Origin: a virus
Taxonomy: Duplodnaviria; Caudoviricetes
Length of the DNA stretch: 62,168 nucleotides
Reading direction: 5' to 3' (one strand)
IMG/VR virus record: IMGVR_UViG_3300042887_001901
Coordinates: 1-62,168 of that record
Position 1 is the stretch's first letter, and every line of letters starts with the position of its first letter. A model generated the notes under the pieces. It ran no database searches and had not been told where the DNA came from. It saw only the letters and a program-made list of their open reading frames with translations. Below, in pieces: positions 9,008 through 38,615 of the stretch. The translations under genes and the position numbers were made by a program.

Positions 9008-9539
9008 ACGACAGGTCTCAAATTTTATTATTAAACCGCTTACCTTAGGGGAGCACAAAATGTGAACAAAATGACACAATTACAACATTGGGCAATGGAC
9101 CCATTCGACATTGTTTGGAAGAATTTTTTAGATGTAAATTCCCCATTCAATACATTAGACAACAAAATCAACTACCCAGTTGACATTTATGAAATCGAAA
9201 ACGGTTTACGTTTCGAATTAGCAGTAGTAGGTCTCAATCAAGAAGACTTAGACATTCAAGTAGAAGGAGATACACTTAGAATTACCCACGACAGAAAGGC
9301 AGCAGATGAGTACCGTCCTTATATCCAAAGAGGTATAGCTAGACGTTCATTTGATTTAGCATGGAAAGTAGCAATGAAATTTGATTTAACTCAATTAACA
9401 GCTACTATGGATAAAGGATTGTTAATAATTGACATTCCAGTTTCAGCAGAAAGAGCACCAAAGAAAATTTCAATTAATGCTCCGCTTGAATTAAAAACAA
9501 GCAAGAAAAAATAAGTTTTGAAAATCCGAGACCTGTCGT
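9008..9539. repeat. Long-range inverted repeat enclosing hsp20 (arms 9008-9019 and 9528-9539)
   Basis: ACGACAGGTCTC ... GAGACCTGTCGT, perfect 12 bp; ATTTT/AAAAT extends it after a 2-nt mismatch. Confidence 0.8.
9062..9514 (+). CDS. Small heat shock protein Hsp20
   Basis: YPVDIYE, YIQRGIARRSF, ATMDKGLLIIDIP alpha-crystallin motifs; true start may be the ATG at 9071. Confidence 0.92.
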   Translation: MNKMTQLQHWAMDPFDIVWKNFLDVNSPFNTLDNKINYPVDIYEIENGLRFELAVVGLNQEDLDIQVEGDTLRITHDRKAADEYRPYIQRGIARRSFDLAWKVAMKFDLTQLTATMDKGLLIIDIPVSAERAPKKISINAPLELKTSKKK

Positions 9540-9547
9540 TATATTTA
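9517..9547 (+). promoter_or_regulatory. Bacteroidota-type promoter candidate for groES-groEL
   Basis: TTTG-N19-TATATTTA; the spacer contains the right arm of the hsp20 inverted repeat. Confidence 0.5.
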
Positions 9548-9567: not shown

Positions 9568-9873
9568 ATGAAAATTATCCCGTTACACAACAACGTTGTG
9601 ATTAAACAAACTGACAACACAGAAGAGATGTATGGAAACATCTTAATACCTGATATGGGTAAAGAAAAACCATTGATGGGTGAAATTGTAGCAATTGGAT
9701 TAGGTAGAACTACTGAAACAGGTGCTTATGTAAAAACAATTTTAGAACCAGGACAAACAGTAGTATTCCCTGCATTTGGGGGTGTTAAAGTAAATGTTGA
9801 TGGTGAAGAATATGTAGTATGTAAAGAAACAGATTTAATTGCAGTAATAGAAAAAACAACAACAAATGAGTAA
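9568..9873 (+). CDS. groES: Co-chaperonin GroES
   Basis: IIPLHNNVVIK, ILIPDMGKEKP, GEIVAIG, ETDLIAVI. Confidence 0.93.
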   Translation: MKIIPLHNNVVIKQTDNTEEMYGNILIPDMGKEKPLMGEIVAIGLGRTTETGAYVKTILEPGQTVVFPAFGGVKVNVDGEEYVVCKETDLIAVIEKTTTNE

Positions 9874-11485
9874 AATAATTAGTTTTGATCGCGAGGCGAA
9901 AGAAAAATTACAAAACGGAATTGATAAAGTAAATAAAGCAGTAGCTACAACAATGGGTCCTTTTGGGCGTAATGTATTAATTGAAAAAGAACATGGTGAG
10001 GTTTCATCAACTAAAGATGGTGTTACAGTAGCTAAAACTATTACTTTGGAAGATCCAATTGAAAATATGGCCGCTACAGTTATTAAGCAAGCAGCACAAA
10101 AAACAGTTGATGCAGCAGGTGATGGTACAACAACATCTACTGTATTAGCACATGCTATTGCAACACAAGCATTACATGCAACATCATATGCTTCATCTAA
10201 TGCAACTCAAATTAAGCGTGGTATTGAAGCCGCTGTTAAATCAGTAGTAAATGAGTTAAAAGTAATGTCAGTAGATATTACTAGTGAAGACCAAATTAAG
10301 CAAGTAGCAACATTATCAGCTAATGGCGACACTGAAATTGGTGAATTAGTAGCTACAGCGATTGATAAAGTAGGTAGAGATGGGGTAGTAACAGTTGAGG
10401 AATCTCGTTCAGGTGAAACATCACTTGAAGTAGTAGAGGGTTTACAGTTTGATAGAGGTTATAAATCACATTACTTTGTAACTGATAATAACACAATGTC
10501 AGCTGTATTAAATGAACCATTAATTTTAATTTACGATAAGAAAATTACTACAATTAAGGATTTATTACCATTACTAGAGAAAGTATCGGCTGAACAAAAA
10601 TCGTTACTTATTATCGCTGAAGATATTGAAGGTGAAGCATTAGCTACATTAGTAATGAATAAAGGTAGAGGTGCATTGAAAGTAGCTGCTGTTAAAGCTC
10701 CAGGCTTTGGTGATTTAAGAGATCAAATGTTAGAAGATATGGCTACCTTAACTGGTGCTACAGTTATTTCTTCAAACAGGGGTATGACATTAGCTAAGTT
10801 AAATATGGATTGGTTAGGTAATGCTAGAGTTGCTACTGTAGGTAAAGAAACAACTACATTAGTTGATGGTAAAGGTAATCCTGAAAAAATCGAAGAACGT
10901 ATCTTAGCACTTAAAGCACAATTAGATAAAGAAACTACACCATACAACGTTGAGCGTTTACAAGAGCGTTTAGGTAAGTTAGTAGGTGGAGTTGCTATTA
11001 TTAATGTAGGTGGTGGTACTGAAATCGAAATGAAAGAAAAGAAAGACCGCTTAGACGATGCGTTACAAGCAACTAAAGCAGCTTTAGATGAGGGTGTATT
11101 GCAAGGTGCAGGTGTAGCATTATTAAGAGCTAGAAATGCAATTAGTAATAGAGGTAATACTGATTTTGGTAAAGGTGGAACAATTGTATATAATGCTTGT
11201 GAAGCTCCATTCCAACAGATCCTTAAAAATGCAGGTGAAAATCCTACTAAATGGGAAATTATCTTAAAAGATGTAGATAAAAAACATGTTCCAGATATTA
11301 CTAATGAAACTGTAATAGATGCATTCGCAGCAGGCATTATTGACCCAACTAAAGTTGTACGTTCAGCATTGGAAAACGCAGCAGCAGCCGCGGTTACATT
11401 ACTTATGACTGAATGTGTTATCCATACTAAACCAGATGATAAGAAAAAAGACGCTGGGTTTGATATGGCAGGATTAGGAATGTAA
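9866..11485 (+). CDS. groEL: Chaperonin GroEL
   Basis: [48 protein letters not shown]. Confidence 0.97.
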
Positions 11486-36785: not shown

Positions 36786-37116
36786 GCAACTGCCTACCGC
36801 GGGTATAACCATCGCATGACGAGGAGGCGACTTTGAAAAATAGTGGGTAGTTGTTATAATATTAAAGTGTATCCTTTAACTGTAGGAAGGGCGGATACAC
36901 TAGGTTGATTGGGATAAGCATTTATTGCATAAATCGGTTAGAAAAGCCAATTGTAAAAGTAGATGTCCACGCACCCATCTTCTACTTTCCTAAACTTAAA
37001 GACGTTGGCTGCCAAAACGTCTCTAATATAAGCAGAACCATTAGAAACGATATCTAATTCTAATGGTTAGTGGTAGATGAGTATTGATGACTGCAGCCTC
37101 TAATACTCACACCACT
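36786..37116 (+). ncRNA. Array of back-to-back structured RNA elements
   Basis: Six adjacent helices/multibranch folds with no ORF, directly upstream of tRNA-Ser. Confidence 0.6.
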
Positions 37117-37121
37117 GTAAT

Positions 37122-37206
37122 GGAAAGCTGGCAGAGTGGTTGAATGCACCGGTCTTGAAAACCGGCAACTGTAACAGGTTCTGAGGTTCGAATCCTTGGC
37201 TTTCCG
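37122..37206 (+). tRNA. tRNA-Ser(UGA)
   Basis: GGAAAGC/GCTTTCC acceptor stem, CCGGT-CTTGAAA-ACCGG anticodon arm, variable arm, GGTTCGAATCC, G73; CCA not encoded. Confidence 0.93.
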
Positions 37207-37220
37207 CAAAATTATATTAT

Positions 37221-37445
37221 ATGTTATTAGGTTATTACATTATTTGTGTTATTTACTGTTTCTATCAGTTAAATAAAAAATATAAAACAAGAGGTATTGA
37301 TTATGGTATATCACCAGAAATGGATGCTATAATGGTATTAGTTATGGCTTGGGTATTAGCCCCAGTTGACGTATCTATTACTTGGATTAAAATGGTTAAA
37401 GAAGCTGAAGAGGCTAAGCGTAGAAATAGTAATAGATGGATTTAA
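37221..37445 (+). CDS. Small membrane protein
   Basis: Two hydrophobic segments. Confidence 0.6.
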   Translation: MLLGYYIICVIYCFYQLNKKYKTRGIDYGISPEMDAIMVLVMAWVLAPVDVSITWIKMVKEAEEAKRRNSNRWI

Positions 37446-37448
37446 CAA

Positions 37449-37604
37449 TGTAGGGTGGCGGAAATGACGGCAGTCAAGGTAGACGTGCCCTCTCGTCTAG
37501 AGGGTGCTGATAAGAGATAGATATAAGATATGGGTTGACCACAAAGCCGGCTTAGTTGTCTTATATTGAATCGCAGCGTGCTGGTTCGACTCCAGCCCCT
37601 ACAG
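37449..37604 (+). ncRNA. Aberrant tRNA-like RNA (156 nt; 75-nt variable arm; nominal GUC anticodon)
   Basis: TGTAGGG/CCCTACA acceptor stem, Leu/Ser-type D region, CCCTC-TCGTCTA-GAGGG arm, GCTGG-TTCGACT-CCAGC T arm. Confidence 0.8.
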
Positions 37605-37606
37605 CA

Positions 37607-37907
37607 AGTTGCTGTTCTTTAACATATAGGAGAAATAAATTATGGAAATACTATCATTCGTTTTAGGGGTAGCATTTGTAGTGGTTATTGCTGTTGCAAT
37701 AGTTGCTGTTTATGCTTTCGTTAAGGTAAGACAAGTAAAACAAGAACTACAAAGTACTCAATTAACATTGAGTAGTGAAATTGAAAATGTGTATCGAGTA
37801 ATACATGATGAAAAAATGAATATGTATTCATCAATCGACTCACGTTTGGACAAATTAGAATCTAAATTAACTAATAAAAAATAAAAATTAGTTAAAGAAC
37901 AGCAACT
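37607..37907. repeat. Long-range inverted repeat enclosing ORF 37642..37884 (arms 37607-37623 and 37891-37907)
   Basis: AGTTGCTGTTCTTTAAC ... GTTAAAGAACAGCAACT, perfect 17 bp. Confidence 0.9.
37642..37884 (+). CDS. Single-pass membrane protein with coiled coil
   Basis: N-terminal TM helix, C-terminal IDSRLDKLE; AGGAG upstream. Confidence 0.75.
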   Translation: MEILSFVLGVAFVVVIAVAIVAVYAFVKVRQVKQELQSTQLTLSSEIENVYRVIHDEKMNMYSSIDSRLDKLESKLTNKK

Positions 37908-37922
37908 AAAATATTTATCGTT

Positions 37923-38249
37923 ATGGCGTGTCATTGTTTAACATTAAAGGATCAACGTGAATTCTTTCGATTAATGAAAGAAAGGGATAGCGATTTGATA
38001 CTTAAAATGGTTAAATGTGTACTTAGTGCATATAAGCGAAATAAAGACGGAATTGATATATTTGATATCACATTCAAAGATATGAGTGGCATGGTATTTA
38101 ATATTGAAAAATCGCAGTACACTGATTTATTATCCAATTGTTTAAATGATTTAATTGCAATTGAAGAATATGAACTATGTGCTGATATTAAGAAAATATT
38201 AGATAAGAAATCACGTAAAAAACATGGGGATGCCCTGGAATTGATTTAA
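37923..38249 (+). CDS. Hypothetical protein with UVR-like motif
   Basis: CLNDLIAIEEYELCADIKKIL; 3' end overlaps the tmRNA. Confidence 0.7.
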   Translation: MACHCLTLKDQREFFRLMKERDSDLILKMVKCVLSAYKRNKDGIDIFDITFKDMSGMVFNIEKSQYTDLLSNCLNDLIAIEEYELCADIKKILDKKSRKKHGDALELI

Positions 38250-38583
38250 TTGTAGAGGTAATACCACACGTAGACAAAGTAAGAATGTCTTTAAATACTT
38301 GCAAAACAATAACCGTAGAATTATCTACCATGACCTTCGCAGACTTAATGTCTTTCGTAGGCGCTGACGAGTACGCATACGCGGCTTAATAAGCATCGGG
38401 TGTAACATCCTAGGAACAGAAGTTACAAGCTAGGTTTTCTTTGTAGTCGTAAAACAAAGTGGTGGTAACTGGTACTTAACTGTACGGCCCTTTACTGATC
38501 AGCTTAAAATGTAGATCTAAACGTGTGACACGCTGGTATAGCTGTCTCTATTAAAGACAGGGGTTCGACTCCCCTCATCTCCA
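38226..38583 (+). ncRNA. ssrA: tmRNA
   Basis: GGGGATG/CATCTCC-A acceptor stem with G3.U70, GACAGGGGTTCGACTCCCC T arm, internal tag ORF ending YAYAA followed by TAA TAA. Confidence 0.92.
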
Positions 38584-38587
38584 CTGC

Positions 38588-38615
38588 AGAGCAACCCTAA
38601 TCGGTTGCTCTTTTT
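38588..38615 (+). terminator. Rho-independent terminator after tmRNA
   Basis: AGAGCAACC-CTAATC-GGTTGCTCT-TTTT. Confidence 0.8.

Follow-up and report, generated by a model that had tools for sequence, protein, structure and literature searches.

A small phage gene lies within a conserved long-range RNA helix whose 5' strand carries a predicted BoxA

The window, by which we mean the whole stretch of DNA analysed here (62,168 nucleotides), is a 62-kb virus contig of approximately 32% GC with essentially every gene on the + strand. Its DNA polymerase has its best match in the T4-like Microcystis phage Mel-JY01 (35.7% identity), and a DNA search for cultured phage relatives returned matches to the tRNA-Ser gene only. 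The locus of interest is part of a block of small genes arranged in the order tRNA-Ser, 74-aa ORF, tRNA-like RNA, cassette, 108-aa ORF and tmRNA, the cassette being an 80-aa ORF enclosed by an inverted repeat. A sigma-70-like promoter match (36833-36860, + strand; 11 of 12, a consensus match only) lies upstream of this block, and a terminator-like hairpin (38588-38611, +) lies right behind the tmRNA gene (38226-38586, +), which, like tRNA-Ser(tga) (37122-37207, +), belongs to the same putative operon as the cassette. No promoter-like or terminator-like site was found to flank the 80-aa ORF in a consensus scan.

The RNA directly upstream of the cassette (37450-37603, +) is tRNA-like, combining acceptor and T arms with an extra arm of unusual length, and was called by neither ARAGORN nor Rfam. 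It is ~154 nt long, with an insertion in the D-loop region, an extra arm of ~60 nt and a non-canonical anticodon-loop-like sequence. Downstream of the cassette, the conserved 108-aa ORF (37923-38249) overlaps the first 24 nt of the tmRNA gene, so that 5' processing of the tmRNA would remove the stop codon of this ORF.

The 80-aa ORF (37642-37884, +) encodes a protein with an N-terminal transmembrane helix, a middle part of variable length and a conserved C-terminal DSRLDKLExKL motif. This protein belongs to a virus-only family without assigned function, whose members have 80-114 aa (240-345 nt) across the homologs described below. Leads to its role are weak, namely a PHROG match to an Rz-like spanin (E 0.0014) and Atlas neighbours annotated as releasin and holin, at 0.78. 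A Shine-Dalgarno (SD)-like AGGAG (37628-37632, +) stands 9 nt before the ATG, outside the helix, and (A)AGGAG is conserved in most homologs. Among 100 crude ATG-ORF calls on the + strand, this ORF was the sole one with an SD-like 4-6-mer located 3-12 nt upstream, in line with the rarity of SD motifs that the preliminary description of the locus had remarked on. The 99 calls lacking such a motif leave its frequency below the 6% background, a scarcity which, we assume, is in keeping with a host that makes no use of SD pairing, for example a member of the Bacteroidota.

The inverted repeat around this gene is perfect over 17 bp, with a 5' arm at 37607-37623 (+; AGTTGCTGTTCTTTAAC) and a 3' arm at 37891-37907 (+) which is its exact reverse complement (arms 100% complementary, 267 nt spacing). 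The left arm begins 3 nt past the discriminator-like A (37603) of the tRNA-like RNA, and 6 nt separate the TAA stop (37882-37884) from the right arm, confirming the positions reported earlier. The window contains no longer perfect inverted repeat with arms 50-3000 nt apart. The expected number of 17-mer inverted repeats per window is 0.06 for spacings of up to 3 kb and 0.007 for up to 400 nt, and none appeared in 60 simulated windows (first-order Markov). One window by itself is only modestly significant, and it is because the repeat is conserved in homologs that we regard it as going beyond chance. Minimum free energy and centroid folds of 37604-37912 both include the 17-bp helix (z = -4.2). 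The arm also has an internal copy, TAGTTGCTGTT, at 37700-37710. Its complementarity to 37898-37908 was rejected as a meaningful pairing: the internal site is invariant coding sequence and the 3' arm is variable among homologs, so that we consider this match a coincidence. End helices are not a rule for the genes of the window either, since of 100 only the 80-aa ORF, hsp20 and an artefact stood out, the latter being a tRNA-tRNA signal at 37221-37445.

Homologs were collected as 24 loci from a single-sequence scan, together with the best 80 of 190 IMG/VR loci and the best 80 of 396 metagenome loci from an alignment-based scan, in which these 190 and 396 loci came from 269 candidate stretches in IMG/VR and 598 in metagenomes, respectively. 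The sources are uncultured viral and lake metagenome contigs of freshwater phages. From the resulting 185 sequences (184 loci and the window), 6 were removed because they lay near a contig end and 15 because they had none or several ORF matches to the N-terminus pattern. The 164 usable sequences correspond to 117 unique segments, of which two with truncated ORFs (L058 and L067) were dropped, leaving 115 aligned loci.

We searched for helices between the last 70 nt upstream of the ATG and the first 70 nt downstream of the stop codon. An uninterrupted helix of at least 12 bp, allowing G·U, was present in 113/115 loci and one of at least 16 bp in 90/115, while among 575 trials with shuffled 3' flanks 1% reached 12 bp and the longest helix had 13. 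The arms stay paired in the 115 unique loci through 62 distinct arm pairs, with helix lengths of 16-23 bp, and the end of the 5' arm lies in most loci 18-19 nt ahead of the ATG. In a 22-pair model, 84.5% of the cells were paired, compared with 74.2% in shuffles (0/500 reached the observed value), and when the partner strand was slid by 1-3 columns pairing fell to 31-58%. Changes on both sides were seen in 18 of the 22 pairs, giving 356 double-change cells against 136.5, and the pairs alternate cleanly (for example UA 55 / CG 50 and GC 70 / AU 36). RNAalifold recovered the same helix independently; no Rfam family covers it. The arm complementarity that the preliminary description had proposed to check in homologs is therefore kept, with covariation as clear as in a curated RNA family, and the repeat forms a long-range RNA helix that is conserved and selected for in the + strand RNA.

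A second structure of the same transcript is a conserved 12-bp hairpin (37679-37708, +) within the transmembrane-coding region, which covaries at synonymous sites and is 97.8% paired across the 115 loci, with one pair occurring as UA 74 / CG 25 / AU 14. It is followed by a U-rich tract and was scored as terminator-like by the consensus scan.

Inverted repeats may also be elements of DNA, and the arms could be terminal inverted repeats, delimiting either an invertible segment or a small mobile cassette. This would fit the finding that the cassette sits between different pairs of tRNAs in different phages, and that two loci, L036 and L086, carry arms of different lineages. The base pairs themselves point to RNA. 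The 16 core pairs (1840 cells) comprise 1586 Watson-Crick pairs, 166 G·U/U·G, 20 A·C/C·A, 33 other combinations and 35 gaps; at a double-stranded DNA site G·T and A·C would be equally frequent, so the asymmetry of 166 to 20 on the + strand argues for selection on the sense-strand RNA. Furthermore, the 20 A·C cells are confined to 11 rows that are mis-registered or chimeric: in 9 of them the arms pair in another register or with a one-base bulge, forming uninterrupted helices of their own of 9-20 bp, and the remaining two are L036 and L086. Across the 117 unique segments, all 162 tRNAs called by ARAGORN within 400 nt of the gene are on the strand of the gene and none is on the opposite strand, which means that no inverted copy exists among the loci examined. 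Moreover, no target-site duplication was seen at the window locus. We therefore regard a DNA-level element as extremely improbable; the preliminary description had already leaned towards end pairing of a single-gene mRNA over a recombinase site, and covariation, the excess of G·U over A·C and the constant orientation all bear this out.

The first reading of the locus had not included a second property of the 5' arm, its resemblance to BoxA. The consensus that we used, GYTCTTTAANA, is taken from the available text of Baniulyte et al. 2017 (PMC5725501), whose Supplementary Table 2, of boxA sequences, may bear on it. The inner part of the 5' arm (37614-37624, +; GTTCTTTAACA) matches this consensus exactly, and GYTCTTTRANA is matched by 101/115 loci, 74 of them with GTTCTTTGAC, the commonest phage 10-mer, and 15 with the A variant GTTCTTTAAC, which the window has. 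Matches to the BoxA pattern are not rare enough to be telling by number, as the window contains 3 against 0.93 expected and 8 of 100 shuffles reach at least 3. Across the homologs the inner 10 nt of the 5' arm hardly vary, whereas the 3' arm has taken on A/G and U/C substitutions compatible with wobble pairs, so the 5' strand has a sequence-specific role. Judged by its sequence, the 5' arm carries a predicted host-type BoxA, the NusB/NusE-binding signal of rRNA operons. Pairing matters even without it, since a lineage of 8 of the 115 loci, with an arm ending in CCATCTCTAATTGAC, no longer matches the BoxA consensus and retains a helix of 18-21 bp.

The same motif is found in front of 23S rRNA genes. 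The phage encodes GroES and GroEL beside hsp20 (9568-11485), and the best GroEL matches are mixed and 50-54% identical, with the FCB group on top, which is not decisive for host assignment. Through the GroEL locus we reached Pedobacter mendelii, where the 11-mer GTTCTTTGACA has 4 copies in 4.7 Mb; three of them precede, each at exactly 151 nt and in the same orientation, one of the three 23S genes of this genome, and stand downstream of tRNA-Ile and tRNA-Ala. We then drew on a sample of 31 genomes of the same phylum, searching for 23S in 19 of the other 30 and finding it in 11, two as fragments. GTTCTTTGAC was present in 10 of 11 regions (the 300 nt before 23S starts, in 10 further genomes), which belong to 9 of these genomes, 55-283 nt upstream, and was absent from the 300 nt upstream of 23S in G012. 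Altogether the motif accompanies 13/14 23S copies, on the same strand, in 10/11 genomes examined from the Bacteroidota, the phylum that we infer for the host. The A variant GTTCTTTAAC was not next to 23S in the three genomes that allowed the test.

In all six genomes in which the 23S leader was paired with the trailer, the motif lies within the leader-trailer duplex. This duplex was stronger than all shuffled-trailer controls tested, or clearly extended, in 5/6; G028 has a perfect helix with a trailer strand resembling the phage 3' arms, and the best of 100 shuffles was not surpassed by its overall energy. The pre-23S stalk and the phage locus thus have in common the 10-nt GTTCTTTGAC in the 5' strand of a long-range helix around the product RNA and tRNA genes directly upstream, as verified in Bacteroidota. 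They differ in that the phage helix is 16-23 bp long, lies in a phage tRNA array and encloses not 23S but an ORF of 240-345 nt with an SD. As what is enclosed is a conserved ORF and not rRNA, the cassette is an analogue or mimic and not an rRNA operon. We consider it reasonably probable that the locus is a cassette resembling an rRNA precursor, in which, within a phage tRNA/tmRNA operon, an ORF takes the position of 23S in a BoxA stalk.

The surroundings of the cassette were compared across the 115 loci. An ARAGORN tRNA ends at most 8 nt before the helix in 60 of them (37 at 0 nt and 11 at 1 nt), and 47 have only a T-arm motif upstream of the helix, as in the window. Downstream, a tRNA starts 2-5 nt after the helix in 30 loci, so that many of these mRNAs are bounded directly by tRNA genes of the same strand. 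The identities of the flanking tRNAs vary among phages (Leu, Met, Thr, Ala, Asp, Glu, Ser, Gln and Arg). In 8 loci there is neither a tRNA nor a T arm upstream, and the arm instead follows an AT-rich promoter-like sequence or an upstream terminator, so it would still lie near the 5' end of the RNA. In loci with no downstream tRNA, the cassette is followed by an ORF, a further tRNA-like RNA or a canonical terminator hairpin. We rejected the idea that the 3' arm acts as an intrinsic terminator, since in many lineages there follows a tRNA, the next ORF or, after 8-10 nt, a canonical terminator hairpin distinct from the arm. The T-arm elements preceding the cassette in the 47 loci amount to unrecognised tRNA-like RNAs, and the related phage tRNA arrays also contain tRNAs with four-base anticodons by ARAGORN (L011:2709-2782 and L014:1982-2055; aaat and aaaa).

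An end helix was found in 3/69 other inter-tRNA spacers, one of which holds the same gene, compared with 1% of shuffles, so it is no general requirement for genes embedded among tRNAs. One inter-tRNA spacer, L179:2719-2928, has a perfect 15-bp end helix and matches the Rfam freshwater-1 RNA (RF02979) with 73.4 bits, the gathering score being 72. RNA-library contigs of relatives 85-99% alike cover the gene, although such libraries may contain DNA, and they give no ends, strand or level. One such contig spans 37517-37754 and another 37844-38337, which, with the same reservation about DNA, is consistent with a longer precursor.

A rival explanation is that the helix only seals the 5'-monophosphate and 3'-OH ends left by tRNA processing, or masks a nuclease site, and that the likeness to BoxA is due to ancestry or coincidence, with no part for Nus factors. 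The closeness of the arms to tRNA ends (0-5 nt), the helix of the lineage without BoxA and the position of the arm near the RNA 5' end even in the 8 loci with no upstream tRNA would all agree with this. There is also a precedent in Bacillus subtilis hbs, again a small gene with a strong SD, where according to the available text a 14-bp interaction between 5' UTR and 3' UTR modulates RNase Y cleavage by altering nuclease access (PMC5737220). As far as that text goes, however, the hbs pairing overlaps an RNase Y site beside a terminator, involves neither BoxA nor flanking tRNAs and is known from a single locus and not from a covarying family (PMC5737220). Against a mere clamp, the core of the 5' arm is conserved far beyond the needs of pairing while its partner drifts, this core is the motif of host 23S leaders, and other inter-tRNA ORFs have no such clamp. 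We think this explanation unlikely.

Since the product is a small bitopic membrane protein with the weak lysis-type leads mentioned above, we also considered fold-back control of a toxic protein, in the manner of hok or AapA1, in which the end-paired full-length RNA would be stable and inert until its 3' end is trimmed. The available text on AapA1 describes a full-length mRNA with a 5'-3' long-distance interaction (PMC5416894). In those systems, as that text has it, the SD is sequestered and there is an antisense antitoxin (PMC5416894), whereas the phage SD is free and no antisense gene was found. Specifically, the phage helix ends 4-5 nt upstream of the SD, which is unpaired in the centroid fold, and the tRNA flush against the arm leaves no space upstream for an antisense gene, of which there was no signal either. 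Fold-back control of this kind appears to us quite improbable.

The rRNA-precursor-like cassette that we favour can be set beside other known arrangements. Mitochondrial tRNA punctuation also produces mRNAs bounded directly by tRNAs, whose ends RNase P and RNase Z could define; the phage case differs in belonging to a bacterial virus, in having an added end-to-end helix and in concerning one gene only instead of all. The use of BoxA by phages is itself a classical theme, exemplified by the lambdoid nut sites. Regulation of mRNAs by BoxA is known for few genes, suhB and others, in the available text of Baniulyte et al. 2017 (PMC5725501), and the phage shares with the suhB type a BoxA in the 5' UTR less than 50 nt from the start codon. 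It differs from both suhB-type mRNAs and nut sites in that the BoxA is a strand of a helix with the 3' UTR and in that no boxB or N-type partner is evident. Pairing between 5' UTR and 3' UTR reportedly overlaps the SD in icaR mRNA. The phage locus has the UTR complementarity of the hbs/icaR class and, unlike icaR, a pairing that does not overlap the SD.

The preliminary description had seen the same layout at hsp20 (9071-9514; Pfam HSP20, E 9.8e-14), which is bracketed by a 12-bp perfect repeat (9008-9019 / 9528-9539). There is indeed a conserved bracketing helix, of at least 12 bp in 46/61 unique loci compared with 3.4% of shuffles, with arm sequences that are quite different among lineages. 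At hsp20 the arm comes after an AT-rich promoter-like motif, 46-88 nt ahead of the ATG, and the helix has no BoxA and no adjoining tRNAs, so we regard it as a separate element, and the layout is not the same in this respect. Within 9008-9070 and 9515-9545 (loci L207-L286), each hsp20 arm can also fold into a small local hairpin with a covarying stem (GAGA..TCTC, GAAGA..TCTTC and GCTAG..CTAGC), and the 5' UTR contains, from the arm to the start, a further conserved hairpin (CCGCTCACCTTAGGGGAGC). The 5'/3' structure of hsp20 may be a switch or a thermosensor.

Our proposal for the cassette takes rRNA synthesis as its model. BoxA in rrn operons loads Nus factors and makes transcription Rho-resistant, and the leader-trailer stalk is a substrate of RNase III. 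The two phage arms form, on the sense transcript, a 16-23-bp helix closing the small ORF into a loop, a miniature of the Bacteroidota pre-23S leader-trailer stalk set flush with tRNA ends. By analogy with rrn operons, the nascent BoxA would recruit Nus factors (NusB/E and partners) to RNA polymerase, and this loading might provide Rho resistance across the untranslated tRNA/tmRNA block. The Nus complex could also hold the 5' strand until the 3' strand emerges and so help the distant strands to meet. Since BoxA is recognised in single-stranded form, it would become inaccessible once the helix is complete. The finished stalk may then be cut by RNase III, for which the phage helices, being much shorter than the host stalks, are of borderline length; or processing of the tRNAs by RNase P and RNase Z may leave a short mRNA with both ends clamped and protected. 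Such an mRNA would be translated from the only SD-led start of the window.

Taking the host pre-23S stalks as a guide, RNase III excision or stabilisation of the message, as suggested in the preliminary description, is plausible, and circularisation of the single-gene mRNA, which had been suggested as well, received no support. By the same analogy, the mRNA is probably produced and excised in the manner of an rRNA precursor. We advance more tentatively, as a possibility on which we would not yet rely, that freshwater phages of a widespread group disguise a protein message as a 23S precursor: the BoxA stalk would load the host antitermination/chaperone complex, and the host rRNA-maturation nucleases would deliver a clamped, stable, SD-led mRNA in hosts whose own genes avoid SD.

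BoxA stalks are regarded as rRNA devices, and our literature searches turned up no account of a phage mRNA held in a BoxA stalk or clamped by flanking tRNAs. In over 100 different phage loci analysed here, an mRNA lies inside a predicted BoxA stalk, and the variant of BoxA may serve as a marker of host phylum for uncultured phages. If the proposal is true, phages would express a gene by way of the rRNA pathway, which would be a new route. Specifically, if both Nus loading and stalk processing hold, these phages would borrow the synthesis and maturation of host rRNA for a protein gene, the escape of long untranslated phage tRNA arrays from Rho would be explained, and the cassette would be a portable natural module for stable, precisely ended mRNAs in Bacteroidota.
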